Counted from the stretch's first letter, positions 21,769 to 52,718 are shown. The stretch: DNA of 64,000 bases from an uncultured Gammaproteobacteria bacterium (GCA_965230945.1 OZ246397.1:4692-68691), one strand, 5' to 3'. Numbers and translations: made by a program. Notes: generated by a model not told the origin, from the letters alone.

Positions 21769-22983
21769 TTATTCGTATCTTAAGGCTTGGATAGGATTGA
21801 GTTTAGCCGCTTTCCCAGCCGGGACGACGCCAAAAATAATGCCGATAATAACAGAGACAAAGAAAGCCAGCAAGATAGACCAGAAGGTTATGACGGCAGG
21901 GAAGAATTGATTAATTAAAGCCGCGCCAAGAACTCCGATAATAATTCCTGTTATTCCTCCCCCTACTGAAAGGACGACTGATTCAACTAGAAATTGGATG
22001 AGGATTATTTTAGGGGTTGCCCCAATTGCCTTTCTTAAACCGATTTCTTTCGTTCTTTCGGTAATCGAAACTAACATAATATTCATAATACCAATGCCGC
22101 CAACAATTAAAGAGATAGCGGCAATGCCAGCTAAGGCGACCGTTAAAGCACCCAGAACTTGAGCAACGACAGATAAGAGGCTCTCAGTATCAACTACAGA
22201 AAAATCATTATCGTCAAGAGTCCTTAACATAATTTCTTCAGCTTCGATTTTCGCTTGTTCGATAGATTCTTGATCTTTGGCTTGAAGCCAGAAAGCGATG
22301 ATATTTTCCATATCAAAAGTAGTTAAGGCAGTCGTTACAGGAATAAAAATTTGGTTATCAGTATCAACCCCTCCAAGTGTTCCTTGAGGGCCTAGAACTC
22401 CTAAAACGGTAAATTTATTTTCAGAAATGGTAACTTTTTTCCCTAGGGGATCATTTTCGCCAAAAAGTTTTTCGGCTACCGTTTTTCCCAAGATGACAAC
22501 TTTTTTGGCCGCTTCTTGCTGGGAGAGAGTAAAAAAACTGCCACTTTCGGGATATTGATCTCTAATTTTTGTATATTCATAAGTAACCCCCGCAGCTTGA
22601 GTGGTCTGACTTTTTCCTTTATAAGAAACGGTGGCATTGTTTTCCGTATAGGGCATGACCGCTTTAATAGCAGTACTTCTTTGAACTAAATCTCTTCCTT
22701 GCTCGATGGTTAATTTTGACGCCGCCATCCCTGCTCCTTGTATACCGCCTCCTTCTTCGCCTGAACCAAGTTCAAATTCGCCTGGCATAATATATAAAAT
22801 GTTAGCGCCGATACTTTCAAATTGAGCAGTAATATATATTTTCAAACCTGAACCGATAGAGATCAGGAGAATAACCGAGGTTACGCCAATGATTACCCCC
22901 AGCATCGTTAATAAAGAACGCATCTTGTTTGACTTAAGGGTAATGAAAGCTAGCTTAAAGGTCTCAAGCAATTTCTCCATCAT
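21769..22983 (-). CDS. ABC transporter permease, MacB/FtsX family (4 TM with large periplasmic domain)
   Basis: N-terminal TM, about 220 aa periplasmic domain, C-terminal FtsX 3-TM bundle. Confidence 0.8.
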   Translation of the reverse strand: MMEKLLETFKLAFITLKSNKMRSLLTMLGVIIGVTSVILLISIGSGLKIYITAQFESIGANILYIMPGEFELGSGEEGGGIQGAGMAASKLTIEQGRDLVQRSTAIKAVMPYTENNATVSYKGKSQTTQAAGVTYEYTKIRDQYPESGSFFTLSQQEAAKKVVILGKTVAEKLFGENDPLGKKVTISENKFTVLGVLGPQGTLGGVDTDNQIFIPVTTALTTFDMENIIAFWLQAKDQESIEQAKIEAEEIMLRTLDDNDFSVVDTESLLSVVAQVLGALTVALAGIAAISLIVGGIGIMNIMLVSITERTKEIGLRKAIGATPKIILIQFLVESVVLSVGGGITGIIIGVLGAALINQFFPAVITFWSILLAFFVSVIIGIIFGVVPAGKAAKLNPIQALRYE

Positions 22984-23629
22984 AGATCTTAATTATTTTT
23001 TTAGCGTTTTTGGCAATTTGTTCATCATGAGTAACTAGAATAACAGTATTCCCCTCTTTGTTTAATTTTTTAAAGATGTCAATTATTTCTTTGCCTGTTT
23101 TAGAATCTACGTTCCCTGTTGGCTCATCAGCTAAAATAATACTGGGTTTATTAATTAGAGCTCGAGCAATAGCCGTTCTTTGTTGTTCTCCTCCGGAAAG
23201 CTGATTTGGAAAATGAGAGGCTCTTTCTTTGAGGCCTAATTGCCCAAGAGTTTCCATGGCCCTTGTTTTTCTTTTTTCCGAGTCGATGCCAGCATAAATG
23301 AGAGGAAGTTGAACATTATCTAAAGTTGTTGTTCTGGGGATAAGATTAAAAGTTTGGAAAACAAAACCAATTTTTTTGTTTCTAATTTGAGCCAGTTCTG
23401 CTTCAGACAGTTTAGAAACATCTTTATTCTCAAAGATGACTTTTCCAGAAGTAGGGACATCCAGACAACCGGCAATATGCATGAGGGTCGATTTTCCACT
23501 TCCCGAAGGCCCCATAATGGCAATAAAATCGCCCTTTTCTATCTCCAGATTAATTTTTTTTAAGACATGAAGTGGTTGAGAGCCAGTATCGTATGTTTTT
23601 GAAACATTACTTAGCTGAAGAATTTTCAT
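22964..23629 (-). CDS. ABC transporter ATP-binding protein (MacB/LolD type)
   Basis: Walker [10 protein letters not shown], signature LSGGEQQR, Walker [12 protein letters not shown]. Confidence 0.9.
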
Positions 23630-23631
23630 TT

Positions 23632-24693
23632 TTAATCTTTTTTTGTTTTTTTACGGAGAATGATTATTTGCCCCTCTTCAATTCCTTTTATAATTTCAGT
23701 TTTGGTATCTGTTTCAATGCCTGTTTCTACTTCAATATCTTTGATTTCTTTACCTTCAATAATCTGGACATAACTTTTGTCATTTTTCTCTTTAACGGCT
23801 TCGATAGGAACAGCTAAAATATCCTCTTTACTATCAATAATTATTTCTACATCACCATTCATGCCGACTTTAAATTTAAAATTCTCATTCTGAGGGAGAG
23901 ATATCTCTACCGGATAAGCGGTTCCCCCGCCAGTAGTTCTCACAGAGGAGAAAGAAATTTTATCGATTTTTCCTTCGATTGTTTCTTCAGGATAAGTATC
24001 TAAGATGACATTCGCCTTTTGCCCTAACCTAACCTTACCGATATCGACTTCATCAACATTGGTGGCACACTTCATCTGGTTCGGATCGGCAATCGTAAAA
24101 ACAGCTGTAGCCGGGGTAATATTGACACCGGCAATGGGAGTATCAATACTAGTAACAATGCCTTCTATGGGGGAAGTGAGAGTGGCTAATTTCACTGTCA
24201 GATTGGCGATTTCGTAATCTAAGACAATAGAATCAAGGTCAAATTGGGCTTTCTCTAAAATTCTTTTTATTTCATCAGTGACAAGATGGCTTTCTTTAGT
24301 TTCTTTATAGTCATCGTGGATTTGTTCAAAGTCCCAACGTTCATTCATATAATCTAGCATCTCTTTTTCAAGGGTTTTTTGAAGCTTTCTTTTATCCAAA
24401 GAGGCAATAGCTTGCCACTTTTTAACATAGTCCCCTTCTTTGACGCCTACCCAAGATAAAAGGCCAGAAGTTTGAAATTTTAGATCAACTTGATTTTCGG
24501 ATCTGATAACTCCTGAAGCCATAATAATTTCCGTCAGATCTACTTTCTTAACTTTGGAAGTCTCATAAATAGATTGAGGTTTATAAAAAACAGTCTTTTT
24601 TAAGGAGATAAAACTGACAATGACGACAATAATTGCCAAAAAGACAATGCTTATTTTTTTGTATCTCTTGAAGAAGCTAAAGATTTTTTTCAT
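23632..24693 (-). CDS. HlyD/MacA-family periplasmic adaptor
   Basis: N-terminal TM, coiled-coil hairpin, lipoyl/beta-barrel layout. First gene of the exporter operon. Confidence 0.75.
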   Translation of the reverse strand: MKKIFSFFKRYKKISIVFLAIIVVIVSFISLKKTVFYKPQSIYETSKVKKVDLTEIIMASGVIRSENQVDLKFQTSGLLSWVGVKEGDYVKKWQAIASLDKRKLQKTLEKEMLDYMNERWDFEQIHDDYKETKESHLVTDEIKRILEKAQFDLDSIVLDYEIANLTVKLATLTSPIEGIVTSIDTPIAGVNITPATAVFTIADPNQMKCATNVDEVDIGKVRLGQKANVILDTYPEETIEGKIDKISFSSVRTTGGGTAYPVEISLPQNENFKFKVGMNGDVEIIIDSKEDILAVPIEAVKEKNDKSYVQIIEGKEIKDIEVETGIETDTKTEIIKGIEEGQIIILRKKTKKD

Positions 24694-24805
24694 AGATCGG
24701 TCAAATTATAGCAATAGTAGGACAAAAAAGAAAGACTATTTTTTCTTTTTAAGATAATACCAGGTGAAGCCAATGATGATAATGGCTAGGAAAAAGATGG
24801 CGACA

Positions 24806-25924
24806 TTATTCATACTTGTCCTTTCTTGTAATAGGTTTTTTAATAAAACTAATAGTGGCTAAAAAAGTAGTGATAGGAACTGCTAAAATTAAACCAATAC
24901 TGCCGGTTAAAGCCCTAACTATTTCTTCGCTGATTATTTCATAATTAATAACCTCCTTAAATGGCTGGGGGTTATCAATAAAAAGAAGCAATAGTGGTAA
25001 GGCAGCTCCGGTGTAAACTAAAATTAAGGTATTGATCATTGAGGCGATATGGTCTTTACCGACATTCATGGAGCGGGTGAAGAGTTCTTTTTTGCTGATT
25101 TTAGGGTTGCTTTCTTTTAGTTGTTGGACGATAGCTGATTGAGAAACAGTAACATCATCTAAGATCCCCAAGGTACCAATAATAATTCCTGCCAGTAAAA
25201 TTCCTTTTATATTGAAAAATCCATGTTTGGCGACTTGCAGAAAACCGGCTTCTTCTGAAGCATAGCCAGTTAAATGGGTGAGCTCGACAGCAAACTTGGC
25301 CAGCAAGCCAGTAATTAACAGGGCAATAAAAGTAGAGATGAGAGCAATATTGGTCTTTTTATTTAAACCATGAGAAAGGTAGAAATTAATAGGGAGAATA
25401 ATGAAAGAGGCAAGAATAACGATTAAAACCGGATCTTTGCCAAGATAGATTTGGGGTAAGATAAATTTAAAGATGATAAGAAAAGAAACAGCCAAGCCAA
25501 TTAAGGAAGTTACTCCTCGCCATTTACCAACAGCCGCAGCTAAAATGACAAAAGCGATGAAAAGCCATAGTAGTGCCTTTCTGCGGATAACATCAGCGAT
25601 TAAAAATATTTCATTGCCTTCAAAATCAAAACTTTTGTTAATTAAAAGATTATCCCCTATTTTGTATTTTGTTTGTCCAGCTAAAGGTAAACTACCAGCC
25701 TTAAGAGTTATTAATTGGTCTTTTAAAGATCCTTTGGTGATTAATATTTGTAAGTCCTGAATAAGATTTTGCTGATTATCGACAATTTTAATGTCTTCAC
25801 GGAGGATTTTAGTAATTTTTCCTTCCAGAACTTCTATCTGGCTTGGGTTTTGGGCAAAAACCTTTGCAGGAAGGAGAAAAAGGATTAAAGCCGTTACTAT
25901 TAAAAAGAGTAGTTTTTTAATCAT
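24806..25924 (-). CDS. YibE/F-family membrane protein
   Basis: Signal/TM, soluble N-domain, then about 8 TM helices in the YibE/F pattern (GILDDVTVSQ region). Confidence 0.55.
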   Translation of the reverse strand: MIKKLLFLIVTALILFLLPAKVFAQNPSQIEVLEGKITKILREDIKIVDNQQNLIQDLQILITKGSLKDQLITLKAGSLPLAGQTKYKIGDNLLINKSFDFEGNEIFLIADVIRRKALLWLFIAFVILAAAVGKWRGVTSLIGLAVSFLIIFKFILPQIYLGKDPVLIVILASFIILPINFYLSHGLNKKTNIALISTFIALLITGLLAKFAVELTHLTGYASEEAGFLQVAKHGFFNIKGILLAGIIIGTLGILDDVTVSQSAIVQQLKESNPKISKKELFTRSMNVGKDHIASMINTLILVYTGAALPLLLLFIDNPQPFKEVINYEIISEEIVRALTGSIGLILAVPITTFLATISFIKKPITRKDKYE

Positions 25925-25932
25925 TGTTTCAG

Positions 25933-27381
25933 TTAAAGCCAGCCTAAAAGCATGGCCAATCCCAGTAAGAAGATAATGATTCCAGAGACCAGATGAAGGT
26001 ATCTTATATTTTTATCCTTCCAGCCGGAAACATTTTCCACGGTTGTAAAGCCAATATAACAGATAATGGTTATGGCGATCATGGGGAGAATAAAGATTAG
26101 ATTATAGAGTAAAAGCCAGGGAATGGTTTTAATTAAGGCCAAAGAGGATAAAATACCCCCGCAGATAACATAGGGACCAATGGTGCAAGGAAGTAGAAAG
26201 ATGGTTACTAGAGCACCTATTAAAAAGGCGCTTTTAGGCGAAGTTACCTTAAAGAGGAAATTTTGCATCTTTGGTCGTAAAGACAAAGGCATTTCAGTTA
26301 GGAAACCGCCTGGTTTATAATGGATGAAGTCTTTTAAATTTAAAAGACCCAGGATAATGGCTCCTATTCCTAAAACCTTGTAAAGCCAAAGGCGGATATT
26401 AGTTAAGGCCTGTATTAATTGGAATGATTTAATAATTACCAAGCCATAGATAAGATACATAATGAAGACAGCAGCACTAAAAGCAAGCCCTGCCAGAAGA
26501 ACATTACGTTTTCTCTTTGGAGAGAAGGTTAAAATGGCTAAAAGGATTAATGTTAAGACAGCTAAGGCGCAAGGGTTAATGGCGTCAACAGCAGCTAAGG
26601 AGAGAATTTTAGTCAGTGTAAAACTCTGACAAGCCTCCTTATCTTGTAGATTTTTTTGTACCGGAATTATGGGTGCTTTTTGATCCTCTTTTAGGAAAGG
26701 TTGGCCGTTCCATTGAAAAAGCCAGTCATTAATCTTAATGGCATTTTCAAAGGAAATTTTTTTTCCAGATAGAGGAACTTTTTTTGGTTTAGTAATTTCA
26801 AAATTAATATCTTTAAGTAGCTCTGAAAGGTCATCTGTTAGAAGATTTTTAAGTAATCTATCATCTACATTTCCAGAAGAGCTTATTAAGACTCTTTGCT
26901 TTGTCCAAATGGTTGGCTTTCCTGGTAAAGATGAAAACTTAAGATCTTCAAAACTAATTAATTCCCCATTTGCGGAAGGAAATTTATTAGTTCCTTTTTT
27001 TTCAATAACTTTCTCAATATTTTTAATAATAGGCAAATCTCCTTTTAAAGAATCATCTTTACCAAAGATGATTAAGGGTATACCTAAGCCAGAGTTGTAT
27101 TGTTCGTTATATTGATAAAGCAAGGGGGCATTTTCTTGTTTTTGATAGATTTCGTATTCAAAGACGATAAGATGAGGATACTTTTGAGTCAATTGCTCTA
27201 AAACTATTGGGTCAGCTGTGGCGCAGTGAGGACAACCAATGCCGGTGAAATAAACAGCAGAAAAAGGTTCTTTCTCGCTAGCCGTAGCCTTAGGAATTAA
27301 AAGAAGGCTAATCAAAAAAAGAAAAAAGAACAATAATTTTTTCATTCTTTTTAGGATAAAATATTCTTTGTTTATTTGCAA
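25933..27381 (-). CDS. thioredoxin-fold domain fused to CcdA/DsbD-type transmembrane thiol-disulfide electron transporter
   Basis: N-terminal CPHC redox motif (GIGCPHCATADP). Membrane domain has paired Cys motifs INPCAL and LLPCTIGPY characteristic of CcdA. Confidence 0.6.
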   Translation of the reverse strand: MQINKEYFILKRMKKLLFFFLFLISLLLIPKATASEKEPFSAVYFTGIGCPHCATADPIVLEQLTQKYPHLIVFEYEIYQKQENAPLLYQYNEQYNSGLGIPLIIFGKDDSLKGDLPIIKNIEKVIEKKGTNKFPSANGELISFEDLKFSSLPGKPTIWTKQRVLISSSGNVDDRLLKNLLTDDLSELLKDINFEITKPKKVPLSGKKISFENAIKINDWLFQWNGQPFLKEDQKAPIIPVQKNLQDKEACQSFTLTKILSLAAVDAINPCALAVLTLILLAILTFSPKRKRNVLLAGLAFSAAVFIMYLIYGLVIIKSFQLIQALTNIRLWLYKVLGIGAIILGLLNLKDFIHYKPGGFLTEMPLSLRPKMQNFLFKVTSPKSAFLIGALVTIFLLPCTIGPYVICGGILSSLALIKTIPWLLLYNLIFILPMIAITIICYIGFTTVENVSGWKDKNIRYLHLVSGIIIFLLGLAMLLGWL

Positions 27382-27388
27382 CTAACTT

Positions 27389-27859
27389 TTATTTCTTTTT
27401 GTATCCCCAAGGTTGTCGTCCAAAACCATGTCCCTCATAGTCAATTCGATGAACATTGCCTGATTTACATTTTGGACAAGCCATTTCTACGCCTCGACGT
27501 CCGGTACCAAAAGGAATTTCCCAGGTATACTTACAATCTTCACATTTGAATTTTCTGTTTCTAGTTTGTACCATTTGGTAATCACCCCCTTCGATTCTTA
27601 AGGCTTTACCTTTAATTAAGGCCCTGGTAATTTTTTGAAAAGCGGAAGTTAAAATTCGCTGAAAAGTGCTTTGTGAAACTTTCATTTTTTCAGCCGCTTG
27701 AGTTTGATCTAAATTTTGATCATATCTTAATCTTAAAGCCTCTATTTCATCCATAGCCAATATTTCCTCTTCCAAAATAGATAAAGGAATTCCTCGGGGT
27801 TTAAAATAGATTACCTCTGGATTGAAATCGACAAATCTAGGTTTTTTTGGTCTAGACAT
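27389..27859 (-). CDS. DUF134 (UPF0251) predicted DNA-binding protein fused to a C-terminal zinc ribbon
   Basis: MSRPKKPRFVDFNPEVIYFKPRGIP...LEALRL matches the DUF134 pattern. C-terminal CEDCKYTWE...CPKCKSGN forms a zinc ribbon. Confidence 0.65.
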   Translation of the reverse strand: MSRPKKPRFVDFNPEVIYFKPRGIPLSILEEEILAMDEIEALRLRYDQNLDQTQAAEKMKVSQSTFQRILTSAFQKITRALIKGKALRIEGGDYQMVQTRNRKFKCEDCKYTWEIPFGTGRRGVEMACPKCKSGNVHRIDYEGHGFGRQPWGYKKK

Positions 27860-27915
27860 ACTTTAATACCATGATCTAAGACCACCTAGCTAAAAAGCAA
27901 GGTGGTCTTAGTCTT

Positions 27916-28167
27916 TTATTTTTTGATTTCCTCAAGGCGCTCTTTAATAGCTGTCAGCTCTTCTTCTAGGGCTTTTGTTTCGTCTTCTAGCATTTGGGTT
28001 TCTGATTGGCTATCCATTCTTTGATAAGGTACTCCCCAAGAGCGTTGGCCCCAAAAAAGACCAAATCGAGGCCTTCCTCCCCAAGCTCTACCGACTCCAC
28101 AAGGACCTAATCCTCGACCGGTTAAGGGACCTTGGCCTAAAGGACCTGTTCTGTCAAATCTTGGCAT
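27916..28167 (-). CDS. DUF5320 family protein (Gly/Pro-rich N-terminus, coiled-coil C-terminus)
   Basis: MPRFDRTGPLGQGPLTGRGLGPCG matches the DUF5320 pattern. The second Met is taken as the start. Confidence 0.55.
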   Translation of the reverse strand: MPRFDRTGPLGQGPLTGRGLGPCGVGRAWGGRPRFGLFWGQRSWGVPYQRMDSQSETQMLEDETKALEEELTAIKERLEEIKK

Positions 28168-28261
28168 TTTTTTCACCTCCTTTCTTAATTATATTTTGAA
28201 TATATATTCATTATATGGTTAGGAAAAAGCTTGTCAAGGGGTAATTAAAAATCAAAAGTTT

Positions 28262-28290
28262 TTGTAAATTTGTCATTTTTTTGCTATATT
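28262..28290 (+). promoter_or_regulatory. sigma70-like promoter TTGTAA-N17-TATATT for the permease/NifX-like operon
   Basis: Read directly. 17-bp spacer. About 20 bp upstream of the ATG at 28311. Divergent from the DUF5320/DUF134 genes. Confidence 0.5.
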
Positions 28291-28310
28291 GAGATGAAAT
28301 TTATTTTTCT

Positions 28311-28730
28311 ATGGAAAGAGTAAAATCGGCAATTTTTAAATCGGCGAAATCTCTTTGGAAGGTTTCCCCTTTAATTTTAGGAACTATTTTATTAGTAAGC
28401 CTGATTTCTGTAGTAATTCCTAGATCCTTTTATATGGCCATATTTAGCAAAAATCCAATACTGGATTCTTTTATCGGTGGTTTAATCGGAAGTATCTCTG
28501 CTGGCAACCCTATAACTAGCTATATTTTCGGAGGAGAATTGCTAAAGCAAGGTATTGGTTTAATAGCCGTGACTGCTTTTTTAGTTTCTTGGGTTACTGT
28601 TGGAGTCATCCAACTACCAGCAGAATCAGCGATTTTAGGTAAAAAGTTTGCCTTCTTAAGGAACCTCACCTCCTTTATCTTTTCTATATTAGTAGCAGTG
28701 ATAACGGTATTAATTTTGAAGGTAATATGA
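28311..28730 (+). CDS. predicted permease (ArsP/DUF318-like), N-terminal half
   Basis: 4 TM helices. Stop overlaps the next start (ATGA). Confidence 0.5.
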   Translation: MERVKSAIFKSAKSLWKVSPLILGTILLVSLISVVIPRSFYMAIFSKNPILDSFIGGLIGSISAGNPITSYIFGGELLKQGIGLIAVTAFLVSWVTVGVIQLPAESAILGKKFAFLRNLTSFIFSILVAVITVLILKVI

Positions 28731-29254
28731 AAACTAAATTAAAACAAATCTCCGGTCCCTGGTATTTTTTAATAACGGTAGTTGTAGTTTATTGCCTCTT
28801 GTTTATTTTTAAACAAGATTTATTTTTTTTAAGCTTAAGCTTTTTCGGCAAAATAATTTACAAGATAATCCCTGTTTTTATTTTGGTTTTTGTCTTAATG
28901 GCTTTAACTAATTATTTTATAACCCCAGAATTAGTATTAAGGTATTTTAAAGGAAAGGGAATTAAAAAATGGTTTTTTGTTATTATCGGCGGTATTTTGT
29001 CTGCAGGGCCTATTTATATGTGGTATCCCCTTCTAGCAGAGCTTAAAGAGAAGGGTTTAAATGATGGCCTTATTGCTTGCTTTTTGTATAACAGAGCCAT
29101 AAAGATTCCTCTTCTACCTGTTTTTGTTCTTTATTTTGGTGTAAAATATATCTTAGTTCTGAGTTTGATAATGATATTTACATCTATGATGCAAGGTTTA
29201 ATAATAAATAAATTAATGGAGGTAAAATATGATAATTGCCATCGCTTCAGATAA
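28727..29254 (+). CDS. predicted permease (ArsP/DUF318-like), C-terminal half
   Basis: 4-5 TM helices. Together with the preceding ORF it equals one full-length permease. Confidence 0.5.
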   Translation: MKTKLKQISGPWYFLITVVVVYCLLFIFKQDLFFLSLSFFGKIIYKIIPVFILVFVLMALTNYFITPELVLRYFKGKGIKKWFFVIIGGILSAGPIYMWYPLLAELKEKGLNDGLIACFLYNRAIKIPLLPVFVLYFGVKYILVLSLIMIFTSMMQGLIINKLMEVKYDNCHRFR

Positions 29255-29528
29255 TAAGGATATTAATTCAGAAATAAGCCCAAGAGGAGGAAGGGCTCCT
29301 TACTACTTGCTTTTTGAGGGTAAAAAACTAGTAGAGACAATTAAAAATCCTTTTGCTGTTGGCAGTGGAGGTGCCGGATGGTCCGTTGCTTATATGTTAG
29401 CCAAAAAGAAAGTTGATTTGGTTTTAGCAGGCAGAATTGGCCCCAATATGGAATTTGCTTTAAAAGAAAAAGGGATTAAATTTGAAGCAAAAACTGGGAA
29501 AGTAAAAGAGATTATTGAAAAGTTATAA
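29229..29528 (+). CDS. NifB/NifX-like dinitrogenase FeMo-cofactor-binding domain protein
   Basis: MIIAIASDNKD...SPRGGRAPYYLLFE...VDLVLAGRIGPN matches the Nitro_FeMo-Co fold pattern. 99 aa. Confidence 0.65.
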   Translation: MIIAIASDNKDINSEISPRGGRAPYYLLFEGKKLVETIKNPFAVGSGGAGWSVAYMLAKKKVDLVLAGRIGPNMEFALKEKGIKFEAKTGKVKEIIEKL

Positions 29529-29605
29529 TCTTTTAGTTATTCACTTCAAACTGGCTTCATAATATAAAGATTTTTCCTAATATAGTATGTGAATAGTAAA
29601 AGGGG

Positions 29606-29693
29606 TGGTGCCGCGGGAGAGACTCGAACTCTCACAGGTATTACCCCACAGGATCCTAAATCCTGCGCGTCTACCAATTCCGCCACCGCGGCC
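29606..29693 (-). tRNA. tRNA-Leu (anticodon TAG), CCA encoded
   Basis: Acceptor GGCCGCG pairs with CGCGGC + discriminator A. Anticodon loop TTTAGGA. Long variable arm. 3' CCA present. Confidence 0.85.
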
Positions 29694-29733
29694 TGTTTCT
29701 ATTTTATCAAATTTTGTCTTAGAAGTGGAGTTT

Positions 29734-31434
29734 TTAGTGAAGTTCGGCTTTCTTTTCTTTTAAGAAAGAGCTCCAATTTTCGATGAAATTGATAAAGCCT
29801 AAAAACGGCATATCGATTAAGGCGGTAATAAAGACACTCACAATATTATATTTTTTCCATTTAGAAGAAAGCCACTGCCCTATTTTGGCTACCGGAATGA
29901 ATAAGATATCAAGTAAAAATTCCCAAAAAGTTACCTTTTCGTCAACGGTAATTTCTTTAGCTCTTTGCCTGATGACTAAGCCAGAGAAAATGACAATAGC
30001 CACAATCATGGTATTAATGAAAATAGAAGTTGGCGGTAGTTTAAAGAAATGCAAAGTCCAAATAATGGCTCCTAAAGAAGTAACCCCGGCGATAAGATAC
30101 AATAAGCCGATAAAGAAACTAAAGATTATGTTTCTCCCTTTGGAAACTTTTATTTCATAGACATCTTTTTCGTCTTTCCGGTAAACGATTTTACCAATTT
30201 CATTGGTAATTACCTCAAGATTATTTTTAGGTGGTTTTTTAGTGGTGATGGTTAAAAACAACATTAGAATTGTAGGGGCAAGGATGTCGGCAATCATAGC
30301 GTTGGGGTTAAAACGGCCATACAACCATCTGGCTAAAGGTACCTCTACCACAAATAAAGAAAAACCATTGGCAATAAAGATGGATAGGGTGGAATAAATG
30401 GCCATTTTTAGCAAGCGGCGTCTTAGTGTTTTAAATCTTTTTTCATAAGCTTCCCTAATGAGATTTTTTAGAGTCTTTGTTTCAGCAAATTTTTCTGAGA
30501 TGTTGATCGGTTTTTCAATAAGATTATCCAGAATATCACCCAGAAGGAGCCATAAGGTATTGTATCTTTCACAGAGCTTAAAAAATTTACCTGAAAGCGG
30601 GTGGAAAAGATCTTTCTCAATATTCTGGCGGATGGAAACAATGTTTTGAGCAATTTCGCTAATAGCTTCTGGTGAGGTATTATTCCAGTTAGGATATCTA
30701 TATTTTAAAAGTCGGTAGCTGATAATAGGAGCATCAAGATGGAATAAGGTCCTATGGACGGCAATATAAATTTGAATCCTCTTCTCTTCTTCGCTAATAG
30801 CTTCGGATGGATTTATTTGAATTCTTTTTTCCATTAAACTAGCCATGGAAGAGATTAAGGCGTTTTCTTTGATAGGAGGGGCTAGTGTTTCTTCTATTTC
30901 ACAGGCAGCAATTTCCAAAACCCAGTTATAAAATTGAATTTTGTTTTTACGATCTTTTAAAGAAAGATTCTTTTCGAGAATATAGATATACTTTTCTAAA
31001 ATTCGTTGCACTTCGCCGATTTTGTTTTGAGGGATTTTATCGTTGGGTAAATGCCCACCTCTAATTGATTCTAAAACTAAAGCTTCGGCAATTCTTTCTG
31101 GTTTTAGGTTCTTGACTAACTTAATACCTGAGATTTCAGAAATCAATCTACGTTTAAGTTTCCTTTCAATGGCCGTCCTTCTGACTAACTGCTCTTCTTT
31201 CCAATTAATAACCCGGATAATATTTTCATAAACAGCGGCTACTTTAGAAGCAATTTCATCAACATGAATGACAGGGATTTTCTCCTTTGGTTCTAAGCTG
31301 TCTTTGTATTCCTGATATCCTTTAATTAATCTTTGGATACCTTCAGACAACTCTTCTCTATAGGCAGTTTCCGAAGTGGTTGAGAAATGACTCGTTTCTT
31401 TGGAGAAAATAGTTTTATCTTCTTTATCTTCCAT
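29734..31434 (-). CDS. large membrane protein of unknown function (about 340 aa soluble N-domain, 5-6 C-terminal TM)
   Basis: ORF. No confident family. Confidence 0.45.
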   Translation of the reverse strand: MEDKEDKTIFSKETSHFSTTSETAYREELSEGIQRLIKGYQEYKDSLEPKEKIPVIHVDEIASKVAAVYENIIRVINWKEEQLVRRTAIERKLKRRLISEISGIKLVKNLKPERIAEALVLESIRGGHLPNDKIPQNKIGEVQRILEKYIYILEKNLSLKDRKNKIQFYNWVLEIAACEIEETLAPPIKENALISSMASLMEKRIQINPSEAISEEEKRIQIYIAVHRTLFHLDAPIISYRLLKYRYPNWNNTSPEAISEIAQNIVSIRQNIEKDLFHPLSGKFFKLCERYNTLWLLLGDILDNLIEKPINISEKFAETKTLKNLIREAYEKRFKTLRRRLLKMAIYSTLSIFIANGFSLFVVEVPLARWLYGRFNPNAMIADILAPTILMLFLTITTKKPPKNNLEVITNEIGKIVYRKDEKDVYEIKVSKGRNIIFSFFIGLLYLIAGVTSLGAIIWTLHFFKLPPTSIFINTMIVAIVIFSGLVIRQRAKEITVDEKVTFWEFLLDILFIPVAKIGQWLSSKWKKYNIVSVFITALIDMPFLGFINFIENWSSFLKEKKAELH

Positions 31435-31471
31435 GAGATTATTATATTACAACTAGTATAAAAGGAAAAAC

Positions 31472-34392: not shown

Positions 34393-34410
34393 GAGAAAGT
34401 AAAAAAATAG

Positions 34411-34482
34411 TGAGCCGTGCAGGATTCGAACCTGCGACCAACTGCTTAAGAGGCAGCTGCTCTACCACTGAGCTAACGGCCC
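34411..34482 (-). tRNA. tRNA-Lys (anticodon CTT)
   Basis: GGGCCGT acceptor. D-arm TAGCTCAGTGGTAGAGC. Anticodon loop CTCTTAA. T-arm GGTTCGAATCC. Confidence 0.85.
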
Positions 34483-34486
34483 AATG

Positions 34487-34560
34487 CGCGCCTGGAGGGA
34501 TTCGAACCCCCAACCTCATGGTCCGAAGCCACGCGCTCTAATCCGTTGAGCTACAGGCGC
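34487..34560 (-). tRNA. tRNA-Arg (anticodon TCG)
   Basis: GCGCCTG acceptor. Anticodon loop CTTCGGA. T-arm GGTTCGAATCC. Confidence 0.85.
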
Positions 34561-44594: not shown

Positions 44595-44616
44595 GTTTGG
44601 AGCAGGAGAAGCTTAG

Positions 44617-44690
44617 TACTCCCAGCAGGACTCGAACCTGCAACCTACTCCTTAGAAGGGAGTCGCTCTATCCGATTGAGCTATGGGAGC
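44617..44690 (-). tRNA. tRNA-Arg (anticodon TCT)
   Basis: Acceptor GCTCCCA. Anticodon loop CTTCTAA. T-arm GGTTCGAGTCC. Confidence 0.85.
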
Positions 44691-44696
44691 TTATTG

Positions 44697-44769
44697 AGCG
44701 GGGGACGAGATTCGAACTCGCGACCTTCTCCTTGGAAGGGAGACGCTCTACCAACTGGGCTACCCCCGC
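44697..44769 (-). tRNA. tRNA-Gly (anticodon TCC)
   Basis: Acceptor GCGGGGG. Anticodon loop CTTCCAA. T-loop TTCGAAT. Confidence 0.85.
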
Positions 44770-44794
44770 AAGTTAACTTAAAAGCCAAGTTTTG

Positions 44795-44869
44795 TCGGGG
44801 AGCCGGGACTCGAACCCGGGACCTCACGCTCCCAAAGCGCGCACTCTAAGCCAACTGAGCTACTCCCCG
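44795..44869 (-). tRNA. tRNA-Pro (anticodon TGG)
   Basis: C1-G72 acceptor typical of bacterial tRNA-Pro. Anticodon loop TTTGGGA. Confidence 0.8.
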
Positions 44870-44874
44870 TTTTG

Positions 44875-44960
44875 TGCCGAAGGCGGGATTCGAACCCGCA
44901 TGGTGGAATACCACCAAGAGATTTTAAGTCTCTCGCGTCTTCCAGTTCCGCCACCTCGGC
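44875..44960 (-). tRNA. tRNA-Leu (anticodon TAA)
   Basis: Long variable arm. Anticodon loop CTTAAAA. T-arm GGTTCGAATCC. Confidence 0.85.
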
Positions 44961-45085
44961 AGATGTAACTATTATATCAAAAAAAGCAATAAAAGAGGAG
45001 TGGGGAAAGAAAAATATGGAATTAAAAAAAACCACCAGATGGTCTAAAAATAAACTTAAGGGGAGGGAGAAGAAAATATAACCTT

Positions 45086-45364
45086 TCACTGCCTTTTAAA
45101 TAATTTTCTAAGGTCAGTTCTAGCTTGCTCAAGAATTTTTTTTCTTTCCATCCCGAGGTTTTTACCAGCTCGGTTGATATAAAAGTTAAGCATACTCATA
45201 GCAGATTGATAAGGAGTCCCCTTACGCCTTAAAGAATCCTCAGCCGAACGTTTAAGTGAAGCTGCAATCTTCTTCGAATTTTTCCAAGTAAATACCCCTT
45301 CTTCCAAATCAAGAGCAATGCTTTTTTTCGTTACCTCAGCCGACCAATATTTCTTTCCAGCCAT
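45086..45364 (-). CDS. DUF3175 family protein
   Basis: KKYWSAEVTKKSIALDLEEGVF...SLKRSAEDSLRRKGTPYQSAMSMLNFYINRAGKNL matches the DUF3175 pattern. Confidence 0.6.
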   Translation of the reverse strand: MAGKKYWSAEVTKKSIALDLEEGVFTWKNSKKIAASLKRSAEDSLRRKGTPYQSAMSMLNFYINRAGKNLGMERKKILEQARTDLRKLFKRQ

Positions 45365-45417
45365 ATATTTCTATTATACCTATTTTGACAACCAAGATGC
45401 GAGATTAGTCTTGTTTT

Positions 45418-45488
45418 GCTTGGGAGCCAGGATTCGAACCTGGATTAATGGGTCCAAGGCCCATTGTCCTACCATTAGACGACCCCCA
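45418..45488 (-). tRNA. tRNA-Gln (anticodon TTG)
   Basis: U1-A72 acceptor as in bacterial tRNA-Gln. 3-bp D-stem GTC/GAC. Anticodon loop CCTTGGA. Confidence 0.8.
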
Positions 45489-45557
45489 ATTATATTTTCT
45501 TAACCTATCTAAGAATCTTTTTATTTAGAAAGGAGCGTTGTTATTTTAGAATATGGG

Positions 45558-45628
45558 AGCGGGTAACGGGAATTGAACCCGTCTCTCATCCTTGGCAAGG
45601 ATGTGTAATACCGCTATACGATACCCGC
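45558..45628 (-). tRNA. tRNA-Gly (anticodon GCC)
   Basis: Acceptor GCGGGTA. Anticodon loop TTGCCAA. Discriminator U. Confidence 0.85.
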
Positions 45629-45634
45629 ATTGGG

Positions 45635-45707
45635 TGCCGAGGGGCGGAGTCGAACCGTCATCTCAGCTTTTTCAGAGCCGCGCCGTGACCACCTTGGCTA
45701 CCTCGGC
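45635..45707 (-). tRNA. tRNA-Phe (anticodon GAA)
   Basis: Acceptor GCCGAGG. Anticodon loop CTGAAAA. Confidence 0.8.
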
Positions 45708-45733
45708 AGATTTTTCTTATTCTACCATATCTG

Positions 45734-45807
45734 TGGACGAGAGAGGACTCGAACCTCTGACCTTCTCTGTGTAAGAGAGACGCTCTAACCAGCTGAGCTA
45801 CTCGTCC
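45734..45807 (-). tRNA. tRNA-Val (anticodon TAC)
   Basis: Acceptor GGACGAG. Anticodon loop CTTACAC. Confidence 0.85.
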
Positions 45808-45808
45808 T

Positions 45809-45897
45809 TGGTGCCGGGAACAGGACTCGAACCTGCACACCTATTTAAAGGTACTGCCTCCTCAAGGCAGCCTGTCTACCAATTCCAGCATCCCGGC
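45809..45897 (-). tRNA. tRNA-Leu (anticodon GAG), CCA encoded
   Basis: Long variable arm. Anticodon loop TTGAGGA. 3' ACCA present. Confidence 0.85.
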
Positions 45898-45908
45898 AGG
45901 TTTTAATG

Positions 45909-45992
45909 TGCCCTGAGAGAGAGTCGAACTCTCACGTCCTTAAGGACACTAGCTTCTGAAGCTAGCCTGTCTACCAATTCCAGCATCAGGGC
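45909..45992 (-). tRNA. tRNA-Leu (anticodon CAG)
   Basis: Long variable arm. Anticodon loop TTCAGAA. Confidence 0.85.
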
Positions 45993-51972: not shown

Positions 51973-52221
51973 TTAGGGTTTTTGTTTTTCTACTTTTAAA
52001 GCACAATCTGGACAAATAGATTCACAGATTCCACAAATATTACATTTTTTGAGATCTATTTCAACAGTTGGCGCGTTATAAACTCCAACCTCTTTTTTAG
52101 AAAAAGAAATTGCTTTTTGAGGACATTTCTCGATACAAAGACCGCAGCCTTTACAAAGACCTTTAAAAACATTTATCTTCTTTTGGCTATCTTTTTGTTC
52201 TTTAGGATTAAAGTTTTTCAT
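51973..52221 (-). CDS. 4Fe-4S ferredoxin subunit (delta) of 2-oxoacid:ferredoxin oxidoreductase
   Basis: Two CxxCxxCxxxCP motifs. 82 aa. Confidence 0.8.
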   Translation of the reverse strand: MKNFNPKEQKDSQKKINVFKGLCKGCGLCIEKCPQKAISFSKKEVGVYNAPTVEIDLKKCNICGICESICPDCALKVEKQKP

Positions 52222-52718
52222 AATTCTTTGTTTAAAGCTTTAAGATCCATTTCTTTTACCTTAGGATCTTTATCAAAGTATTTTTTAAATCTTTCTTCCA
52301 TGGTTTTTACTAAACTCTCTTTTGAAACTGCTTTACTAAGATTATTAACTTTACCTAAAACTAAAATATTCCAAGCTTTTACTGGGATGCCATCTTTTTT
52401 AACAGTAATACCTTTATCTACTTTTTGTGTGACAGCGGGTCCTAGAACTATTTGGGTATCTTTATCAATGTAACGTTTGACACGATTAATAGAACGGTCA
52501 GAAAAGATGGCTAAAATATTAGCTTTTTCAAATTTAGGATAGGTAGCACTTTTCCCATCAATAACAACAAAAGCTAATGAAACTCCCCCACGCTGCTCTA
52601 CTCCAAAATTAGGAATATATAAAGATTTTTTACCTTCTAGAAAAGCTGCCTTGGCTAATATTTCGGCAACTACTTGCACTCCTTGACCACCTTCGCCGGC
52701 AAAAAGTATCTTAGTCAT
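52218..52718 (-). CDS. 2-oxoacid:ferredoxin oxidoreductase gamma subunit
   Basis: AGEGGQG motif typical of POR gamma. Confidence 0.8.
   Translation of the reverse strand: MTKILFAGEGGQGVQVVAEILAKAAFLEGKKSLYIPNFGVEQRGGVSLAFVVIDGKSATYPKFEKANILAIFSDRSINRVKRYIDKDTQIVLGPAVTQKVDKGITVKKDGIPVKAWNILVLGKVNNLSKAVSKESLVKTMEERFKKYFDKDPKVKEMDLKALNKEL

Follow-up and report, generated by a model that had tools for sequence, protein, structure and literature searches.

A putative DUF134-controlled metal-sulfur module with archaeal-type cargo in a Patescibacteria-like genome

What brings a predicted DNA-binding protein of the DUF134 family, a DUF5320 protein, a permease in two pieces and a NifX-like protein together around one short control region, and what regulates them? 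The question is raised by a 64,000-nucleotide stretch of DNA from an uncultured Gammaproteobacteria bacterium (GCA_965230945.1, OZ246397.1:4692-68691), which as a whole is called the window here. At 27389-29528 a first-pass annotation, made from the sequence alone, had described five open reading frames (ORFs) parted by a control region of about 130 bp. All five are present there, the intergenic control region (28177-28310) measures 134 bp, and the families are supported by Pfam profile hidden Markov models (HMMs). The minus strand carries DUF134/UPF0251, a helix-turn-helix (HTH) protein of 156 aa with a C-terminal four-cysteine (Cys4) ribbon (27389..27859; PF02001, E=6.7e-23, 81.5 bits against a gathering threshold, GA, of 27), and DUF5320 (ORF 27916-28176, likely gene 27916..28167; PF17253, E=7.2e-17, 62.8 bits against 27). 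The plus strand carries the N-half of a UPF0718/ArsP_1 permease (28311..28730, 139 aa; PF03773, 35.6 bits against a GA of 32.3, profile positions 12-134 of 294), its C-half (28727..29254, 175 aa; 20.2 bits, below the same GA of 32.3, positions 175-293 of 294) and a NifX-like (Nitro_FeMo-Co) protein of the MTH1175/ORP type (29229..29528, 99 aa; PF02579, E=1.4e-12, 48.2 bits against 26.3). The best overall explanation, to which we give a probability of about 0.6, is a DUF134-controlled metal-sulfur module with archaeal-type cargo. Its regulatory layer is well supported by comparison; the signal and the physiology are proposals, the latter of low certainty.

On the minus strand the control region holds a sigma-70 promoter, TTGACA-16-TATAAT (28237..28210), that matches the consensus at 12/12 positions and is predicted to drive DUF5320-DUF134-Trx::CcdA(-YibE/F). 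Lying across it is a 20-bp palindrome (28194..28213; TAATGAATATATATTCAAAA read on the minus strand), a candidate operator that we call the DUF134 box and that covers the last 4 nt of the -10 element plus the predicted transcription start. Its perfect 14-bp core, TGAATATATATTCA (28197-28210, centre 28203/28204), has no other exact copy in the 64 kb; no second box was found in the window even with 3 mismatches allowed, and matches with 4 mismatches stand at or below the chance rate. The closest relatives of this DUF134 that bear an organism name are Patescibacteria, and in an alignment of the 200 nt upstream of DUF5320 from eight Patescibacteria loci only TTGACA and TTATG(A/G)(A/G)TATATA(T/C)TCATAA are conserved. 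The pair is kept in L001, L004, L013, L014, L049, L091 and L092 (labels of this kind denote the related loci compared, about 170 in total, L001 being the sister genome). The first-pass annotation had missed both the 12/12 promoter and the palindrome. What it had called a clear promoter, TTGTAA-N17-TATATT on the plus strand (28262..28290, with an extended -10 TG), matches at 9/12 positions and lies inside a non-syntenic cassette described below. It is a chance-level match in AT-rich DNA and is not conserved, sites of its grade numbering 9 in 3 kb against 8.9 +/- 3.0 in shuffled sequence; the conserved element is the box on the opposite promoter. An Rfam scan of the window finds tRNAs only, so the control region is without riboswitch or leader.

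The box is by no means confined to this genome. A search for the degenerate consensus TTATKRRYATATRYYMATAA, allowing at most 2 mismatches, covered 864 kb in 87 non-redundant loci and found 74 sites in 68/87 loci against 0.4 expected by chance, nearly all of them directly upstream of the first gene of the module; 28194-28213 is a likely candidate for the operator, conserved at orthologous loci, that the earlier annotation had thought worth seeking in the control region. It was seen in Patescibacteria, Thermodesulfobacteriota, Chloroflexota, Bacillota, Planctomycetota, Omnitrophota, Bathyarchaeia and Aenigmatarchaeota. Bacterial boxes follow TTGACA and lie across the -10 element; archaeal boxes come immediately after a TTTAAATA TATA box, the canonical B recognition element (BRE)/TATA being AAACATTTAAATA. 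Upstream of DUF134 the box reads TTATGAGCATATGCTTATAA in Thermodesulfobacteriota, TTATTAGCATATGCTAATAA in Planctomycetota and Omnitrophota, TAATGAGCATATGCTCATAA in Chloroflexota and TTATGAATACTTATTCATTA in Bathyarchaeia. The same palindromic element also turned up in archaeal loci that had been retrieved via the permease. Some loci hold two or three boxes, in tandem or before separate transcription units (L011 7302-7321; L063 2607/2641/5925; L069 3456/3869/6809; L126 217/742; L133 4136/4174), an arrangement that points to small regulons or cooperative binding. In L011 the second box stands before a further gene starting MP... (DUF5320-like), cut by the contig end.

DUF134 is the sole predicted DNA-binding family common to the box loci, many of which hold just DUF134 followed by a NifX-like gene, and the box changes with the protein. 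Proteins with the helix S-Q-x-T go with T at half-site position 4 (GAATAT or GGGTAT) in 30/30 half-sites; those with S-R-x-T go with C at that position (GAGCAT or GAACAT) in 83/88. This covariation is the pattern expected of Gln-A and Arg-G contacts. Together with the distribution of the box it supports the suggestion of the first-pass annotation that DUF134 would be a regulator.

The structure of the protein is consistent with such a function. The PF02001 match spans profile positions 5-97 of 98, and in the AlphaFold2 (AF2) model (mean pLDDT 79.9) the HTH core averages 89-95 over the 10-residue blocks 21-90. The three-helix HTH superposes on the operator-bound DNA-binding domain of DeoR (7bhy; 41% identity over 39 aa, rmsd 0.6 A) and also on sigma-70 region 4. 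For the whole of DUF134 or of DUF5320 no solved structural relative was found, structure matches being confined to the HTH or coiled coil; the MCM N-terminal domain, returned by Foldseek as a whole-model relative of DUF134, was set aside (TM 0.24, rmsd 11). Like the box, the operator of Bacillus subtilis DeoR (SorC/DeoR-type) is a palindrome overlapping a promoter. DUF134, however, lacks the sugar-phosphate effector domain, has a unique N-terminal beta segment (R-x-V-x-F-x-P...YFKPxGIP) as well as the Cys4 ribbon, and its operator is also used in archaeal promoters. The C-terminal zinc ribbon had been noted before and is indeed present, its cysteines C106, C109, C128 and C131 (CxxC...CPxC) being invariant in 22 and in 32 aligned homologues, with weak profile matches to HypA and Zn_ribbon_8. 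It is not special to this genome: the HTH and zinc-ribbon fusion is the standard architecture of a large DUF134 subfamily (the ribbon model PF27353 'MJ0401' of newer Pfam releases, pre-computed on close homologues and not scored on the window protein). Short archaeal DUF134 proteins (66-106 aa) without a ribbon share the same box, so the ribbon would be dispensable for DNA recognition. In one adapted delta-rex strain of Thermoanaerobacterium saccharolyticum the UPF0251 (DUF134) gene Tsac_2480 carries a transposon-like insertion in 57% of reads (PMC5886521); this could be due to chance, or it could hint at a redox-linked function.

What DUF134 does at its box may be suggested by where the box lies. 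Its position argues for autoregulation of the DUF5320-DUF134 operon, and since it covers the -10 element and start site, autorepression by promoter occlusion is the most economical reading; occlusion works with bacterial and archaeal RNA polymerases alike. Judging from promoter layout, DUF134 is thus most likely an autorepressor; the box position speaks for control of its own operon and does not show control of the divergent one, which the earlier annotation had considered. DUF5320, the first gene after the box, probably starts at the ATG at 28167 (MPRF...), 7 nt downstream of GGAGGTG. Between its stop and the start of DUF134 an RNA hairpin is predicted (27875..27912, minus strand; dG -25.9 kcal/mol) with a 14-bp stem and no U-tract, 15 nt before the DUF134 start (z = -5.6, 0/200 shuffles as stable), and hairpins of different sequence occupy the equivalent position in L001 (z -5.4) and L014. 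It probably sets differential expression, and may be a partial terminator/attenuator or a 3'-end stabiliser acting on the DUF5320:DUF134 ratio.

Do these genes belong together? Two censuses were made with custom HMMs built from Pfam-verified seeds, one of 80 species-representative genomes from many anaerobic phyla (DUF134 side) and one of 80 metagenome contigs, counted on the 38 with at least 2.5 kb on either side (permease side). Across the species-representative genome set, 577 stretches encoding DUF134 were confirmed. Within 3 kb of DUF134, a NifX-like gene lies in 53/80 genomes, a MinD-Fer4 ATPase (with inserted ferredoxin domains) in 34/80 and DUF5320 in 27/80; Pfam spot checks confirmed 10/10 NifX-like and 5/5 ATPase calls. 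Around the permease N-half, the C-half and a NifX-like gene are found in 38/38 contigs, DUF134 in 31/38, DUF5320 in 30/38 and the box in 22/38. Linkage is thus very strong from both sides, bearing out the idea, raised in the first-pass annotation, of an unrecognised conserved module, though not its view that these families occur mainly in anaerobic archaea and Firmicutes: the module is spread over at least 10 anaerobic phyla of both domains.

Several ORFs go further and join the families in one polypeptide: DUF134-ribbon::NifX-like in Bacillota (L061 5360-6559), NifX-like::(GRGMG)n Gly/Arg-rich::DUF5320 coiled coil in Dehalococcoidia (L084 8433-9080, Pfam-confirmed; L037 6825-7559; L082 6513-7121), CDF::NifX in L001, L051, L086 and L028, and Mrp::NifX in L064. 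The NifX::DUF5320 fusion is IssA-like in its predicted architecture, and taken together the fusions appear to place several functionally uncharacterised families in a single pathway connected with Fe-S/metal-sulfide homeostasis.

The module also extends beyond the boundary first set at 27389. At 25933..27381 on the minus strand, 7 nt downstream of DUF134, lies a gene for a thioredoxin-like (Trx; CPHC) domain fused to a CcdA/DsbD-like membrane protein (ORF of 482 aa, or 470 aa from the likely start ATG 27345), a continuation that the earlier annotation had not seen. The canonical archaeal operon runs box, DUF5320, DUF134, NifX(112), variable genes, ArsPN, ArsPC, NifX(100), Trx::DsbD-like, and in L041 all six families of the window stand in a single operon, from which we conclude that this gene belongs to the module and that the module reaches 25933. 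On the permease side a Trx/Grx::DsbD-like membrane protein was found within 5 kb and on the same strand in 15/38 contigs. Within the DsbD clan the window protein matches SfLAP (LysE/DsbD clan) only, at 30.6 bits and below GA; the archaeal orthologue of L041 scores 25.6 bits for Glutaredoxin (above its GA of 22.9) and 26.8 for DsbD_TM against a GA of 27.1. The PC motifs NPCALA and LPCTIG are visible in the sequence of the window protein, which is 72% identical to the syntenic L001 gene and 45% to the L011 orthologue.

The evolutionary history of the locus differs on its two sides. By blastn, window 22000-28216 aligns with L001 11854-5624 (78%) and 29608-31463 with L001 1848-3 (76%), and nothing aligns between them. 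What fills the gap here is a non-syntenic cargo cassette of 1.39 kb (28217..29607) made of the plus-strand candidate promoter, the split permease and the NifX-like gene; at the same site L001 holds a 3.8-kb ORP-type cassette encoding a 68-aa Gly-rich protein, a NifX-like protein, a CDF::NifX fusion and two MinD-Fer4 ATPases. The 68-aa protein that opens this divergent cassette (L001 5306-5512, minus strand) is a DUF5320-like peptide starting MPRFGRGVGFGAG that Pfam does not recognise. One breakpoint is the 3' end of tRNA-Leu(TAG) (29606..29692, minus strand; ARAGORN and Rfam), at the same position in L001, and the other lies in the box promoter; inspected by eye, the AT-rich control region (28200-28320) shows no duplicate of the GC-rich tRNA 3' end. 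DUF134 and DUF5320 of the window are 75% and 61% identical to the syntenic L001 proteins and only about 48% and 43% to archaeal ones. Compared with archaeal loci, the proteins of the cassette show 50-79% identity (36% for the NifX-like protein of L012), within the archaeal-to-archaeal range. Archaeal loci were assigned as such from neighbour genes (proteasome, aCPSF1-like KH/beta-CASP, GINS51, CDC48, TFS), record titles (Methanocellales, 'archaeon') and promoter type. In permease-bearing loci 26/30 boxes follow an archaeal TATA box and 1/30 (L173) follows TTGACA, so the cassette is predominantly of archaeal type. These comparisons point to the exchange of an archaeal-type cassette into a resident, vertically inherited regulatory locus of a Patescibacteria-like genome, the direction being taken from distribution and not from a rooted tree. 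Horizontal acquisition from an archaeal donor, as proposed in the first-pass annotation, may hence apply to the plus-strand cassette; DUF134 and DUF5320 are resident and were not co-acquired. The first permease gene (ATG 28311) lacks a Shine-Dalgarno site in 28297-28311 and would have a very short leader from the candidate promoter, whereas DUF5320, the permease C-half and the NifX-like gene do have GGAGG-type sites; its absence may be a relic of the archaeal-type origin of the cassette.

The permease halves encoded in the cassette are very highly conserved. Their genes overlap by 4 nt (ATGA), and the two-piece permease described in the first-pass annotation is genuine rather than the product of a frameshift: all 38/38 related contigs have two genes here, of about 140 + 170 aa, and among 1970 homologues of the N-half the 120 best listed are all 135-163 aa long. 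These are 68-79% identical to the window protein and include Methanocellales, Pacearchaeota and Woesearchaeota; GSISAGNPITSYIFGGE and QLPAE are invariant motifs of this half. The C-half shares 63-72% identity with its archaeal partners of L009-L012 and L093-L095 and 50% with the L041 protein. The NifX-like protein is tail-less and basic (pI 9.6), without Cys or His, and is 59-72% identical to archaeal genes at the same operon position, with the exception of L012 (36%). Its best solved relatives, MTH1175 (1eo1, E=1.7e-14), TM1290 (1rdu) and the orange protein (2wfb, E=3.6e-5), are non-nif, and no nif-type Pfam family (e.g. Fer4_NifH) is above threshold in those genes of the window that were scanned or in annotated genes around the related loci; the nif context (nifHDK, nifEN, nifB) of NifX/NafY/NifB carriers is therefore absent. 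In DUF5320 the N-terminal 50 aa (MPRFDRTGPLGQGPLTGRGLGPCG...) form a polycationic segment in which Gly, Arg and aromatic residues abound (pI 12.0, 13 G, 8 R, 7 aromatic, 1 C) and the C-terminus is an acidic coiled coil; motif and coiled coil were seen in 8 orthologues.

These observations may be assembled into a working model. DUF134 would bind the palindrome at 28194-28213, probably as a dimer, its helix 3 (S-Q-S-T-F-Q-R, with Gln63) reading the half-site GAATAT, and would thereby repress its own operon of DUF5320, DUF134, Trx::CcdA-like and probably YibE/F. A signal could be sensed via the Cys4 ribbon, via a NifX-like partner, or both. The module itself would handle an anionic inorganic metal-sulfide, either Fe-S (thioferrate-like) or Mo/Cu-S, with the Cys-free, basic NifX-like protein as a non-covalent cytoplasmic carrier like ORP and IssA. 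The two-piece permease may move the metal-sulfide species, or its metal, across the membrane, and the Trx::CcdA fusion may deliver reducing equivalents to the outer face.

Two known systems make such a function conceivable. The orange protein ORP binds an [S2MoS2CuS2MoS2] Mo/Cu-sulfide cluster non-covalently and belongs to a complex, specific to anaerobes, that also includes MinD-like Fe-S ATPases and a Mrp::NifX protein transferring Fe-S clusters (PMC6345978), encoded in Desulfovibrio by divergent orp operons under the [4Fe-4S] redox sensor OrpR (PMC3897727, PMC8359166). The orp clusters of Desulfovibrio vulgaris/alaskensis (orp3-4-5, orp7-8-9) share with the window an anaerobe-specific occurrence, an MTH1175/ORP-type Nitro_FeMo-Co protein (Orp8; 2wfb is matched here), divergent operons flanking a regulatory region and a Cys-rich regulator of their own that is autorepressing, as would hold for DUF134, the presumed functional counterpart of OrpR. 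The ORP core, an ORP-like protein with two MinD-type [4Fe-4S] ATPases, is present in L001 and many DUF134 loci, some of which also have a Mrp::NifX like Orp9. The regulators differ: the window encodes a small HTH resembling sigma-70 region 4, joined to a Cys4 ribbon, that would act at a sigma-70 promoter, whereas OrpR is a sigma-54 enhancer-binding protein with PAS-[4Fe-4S] that works with IHF, and no sigma-54 or AAA+ enhancer-binding domain was found among the neighbours scanned with Pfam. The window also differs in content, with split permease, DUF5320 and Trx::CcdA instead of ATPases and Mrp protein.

The second system is IssA of Pyrococcus furiosus, which joins a NifX-type domain to a cationic Gly/aromatic/Arg tail and stores Fe and S as thioferrate (PMC5524996). 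The window protein has the same IPR003731/Nitro_FeMo-Co domain with few or no Cys, and the N-terminal half of DUF5320 resembles the IssA tail (pI 12.0 against 10.7, 13 G against 15, 1 Cys each), so that DUF5320 might supply in trans the polycationic Gly/Arg/aromatic tail that IssA has in cis. Unlike in IssA, domain and tail are on separate polypeptides here: the NifX-like protein, 99 aa and without a tail, is closest to the tail-less MTH1175, and DUF5320 also has an acidic coiled coil with no equivalent in IssA. Thioferrate and nanoparticles are known for IssA, whereas the window system is known here from its genes.

Several observations weigh against the proposed module, at one or another of its steps. 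At 2 mismatches or fewer 19/87 loci have no detectable box, and the Gln/Arg covariation is partly confounded by phylogeny. DUF134 control of the plus-strand cassette in this genome, which the earlier idea of a regulated divergent operon would include, is conjectural: no box was found near the cassette promoter, and the lone box, centred about 61 bp upstream of its -35 element, does not overlap it; in archaea the cassette genes are co-transcribed behind the box. As an accessory module, judged from its occurrence, the ribbon could be purely structural (Zn), which touches the signal step. Neither the permease nor the NifX-like protein has Cys or His ligands by which its substrate could be told. 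The two MinD-type Fe-S ATPases at the core of ORP operons were not found in the 64-kb window by custom HMM, the sole other window match to the Fe-S part of the MinD-Fer4 model being a ferredoxin-like small ORF (51976-52239, minus strand). GC content gives no transfer signature (32.6% in the cassette against 35.2% in the window), so the exchange is not demonstrably recent. Our literature search found no publication on DUF134/DUF5320 function, DUF134 DNA binding or the box sequence.

The same architecture and regulation could also serve another cargo, namely detoxification or export of chalcophile metals (Cu, Zn, Cd, thiomolybdate) in sulfidic habitats, the NifX-like protein sequestering Mo/Cu-S or Zn species and the permease, or the CDF exporter in sister loci, expelling the metal. 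The Mo/Cu cluster carried by ORP (PMC6345978) and the match of the window protein to 2wfb agree with this, and so do the CDF genes, some fused to NifX, that fill the same operon slot in L001, L010, L028, L051, L086 and several metagenome loci. The permease N-half even has a weak NCBIfam match to the SO_0444 Cu/Zn efflux family (E=0.007), although far under the cut-off (15.5 against 300 bits), and the permease lacks Cys, His or Met-rich metal sites. Patescibacteria are not known to use Mo enzymes, and the resemblance of DUF5320 to the IssA tail and the MinD-Fer4/Mrp partners favour Fe-S over chalcophile metals. We therefore regard this variant as unlikely, if the best placed of the alternatives. 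The species may be either Fe-S or a chalcophile metal complex, and it may be imported or exported.

Could the palindrome be read by another factor, such as a Rex-like redox repressor, or be merely part of a strong promoter, DUF134 not being its regulator? The box has an AT-rich sequence and lies across elements of the core promoter, and its half-sites TTATGA are loosely like the Rex half-sites TTGTTA or TTGTGA, Rex being common in anaerobes (PMC5886521). Its geometry, TTATGA-N8-TCATAA, nevertheless differs from the TTGTTA-N6-TAACAA of Rex (PMC5886521). Archaeal loci have a TATA box of their own, TTTAAATA, ahead of the DUF134 box, which is therefore not the promoter itself, and because the flanking sequence is unconserved, shared recent ancestry fails to explain it. 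The box moreover tracks DUF134 in at least 10 phyla of both domains, occurs in L093-L095, is missing in L009, where alone among the permease loci there is no DUF134 gene, and covaries with the recognition helix as described. Another reader of the box is, on these grounds, very improbable, and DUF134 stays the preferred one.

A role of the plus-strand genes in ArsP-type organoarsenical or metalloid resistance might be read from the first-pass name 'ArsP-like permease'. Both ORFs match PF03773 (ArsP_1), the C-half below GA, of which together they span positions 12-134 and 175-293, and ArsP of Campylobacter jejuni exports MAs(III) and roxarsone(III) (PMC6205960). PF03773, however, is a broad 'predicted permease' family that includes YraQ as well as SO_0444, and neither the locus nor about 90 related permease loci contain arsR, arsC, acr3, arsB or arsM (Pfam, on the window genes scanned and the annotated neighbours of 10 loci). 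The window permease is 70-79% identical across bacteria and archaea, always with a NifX-like gene behind it and never with ars genes, and its split over two genes is conserved. Chen et al. in 2015 are said to have found that ArsP cannot work without a vicinal Cys pair located in a transmembrane helix; the N-half has no Cys or His, 15 aligned homologues of it have no Cys either, and the halves together are without both. The name does not hold in a functional sense, and arsenical resistance is a most unlikely role. That the genes are adjacent by chance can hardly be credited, since, gene-dense as Patescibacteria genomes are and different as the histories of cargo and regulator genes may be, this set of families is linked again and again across about 170 loci of both domains, is also seen in gene fusions, and shares a conserved operator.

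The surroundings of the module are mostly shared with the sister genome. YibE/F (24806..25924, minus strand; PF07907, E=1.1e-78), a membrane protein 74% identical to its L001 counterpart, is probably co-transcribed with the upstream genes, from which a gap of 8 nt separates it; YibE_F is absent among the Pfam-annotated genes in the tables of archaeal modules examined. Downstream of it follows a YknX/HlyD-type adaptor (23632-24693, minus strand), syntenic in L001, where MacB-type ABC efflux genes (ABC_tran, then MacB_PCD/FtsX) come after it; no connection of this region (22000-24693, minus strand) to the module was seen. On the other side, a predicted membrane protein of 566 aa (29734-31434, minus strand), 79% identical in the sister genome and without a credible family match (best DrmE_N, E=0.0045), borders the tRNA-Leu junction. 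The window contains 15 tRNA genes, among them two dense arrays of 10 (44616-45992) and 2 (34410-34560) genes, both arrays lying wholly on the minus strand.

The family-wide DUF134 operator, the pairing of permease, NifX-like and Trx::CcdA proteins and the exchange of an archaeal-type cassette are new with respect to the literature that we found. It is tempting to speculate, well beyond the module itself and with little expectation that every part will hold, that DUF134, the NifX-like protein and DUF5320 form a cross-domain system sensing and buffering pre-formed metal-sulfide, which the permease would transport with the extracytoplasmic reductant of Trx::CcdA. Patescibacteria and DPANN, with their reduced genomes, could in this way scavenge or dispose of Fe-S-type material, and a regulator-operator pair left unchanged in both transcription machineries would let the module move between domains.

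MTH1175/ORP-type 'NifX-like' proteins, DUF134 and DUF5320 are widespread in anaerobes, and the structures of MTH1175, TM1290 and TM1816 have long been solved while their functions are still unclear. If our reading is true, the conserved operator would be the first concrete and cheaply testable handle on these families: the window promoter is a perfect E. coli-type consensus, so that repression assays would be straightforward, and the box could be used to define DUF134 regulons genome-wide. The cassette swap beside tRNA-Leu would document archaeal-type genes in a Patescibacteria genome, and the same operator, set in bacterial sigma-70 as in archaeal TATA/BRE promoters, would constitute a domain-portable regulatory unit.

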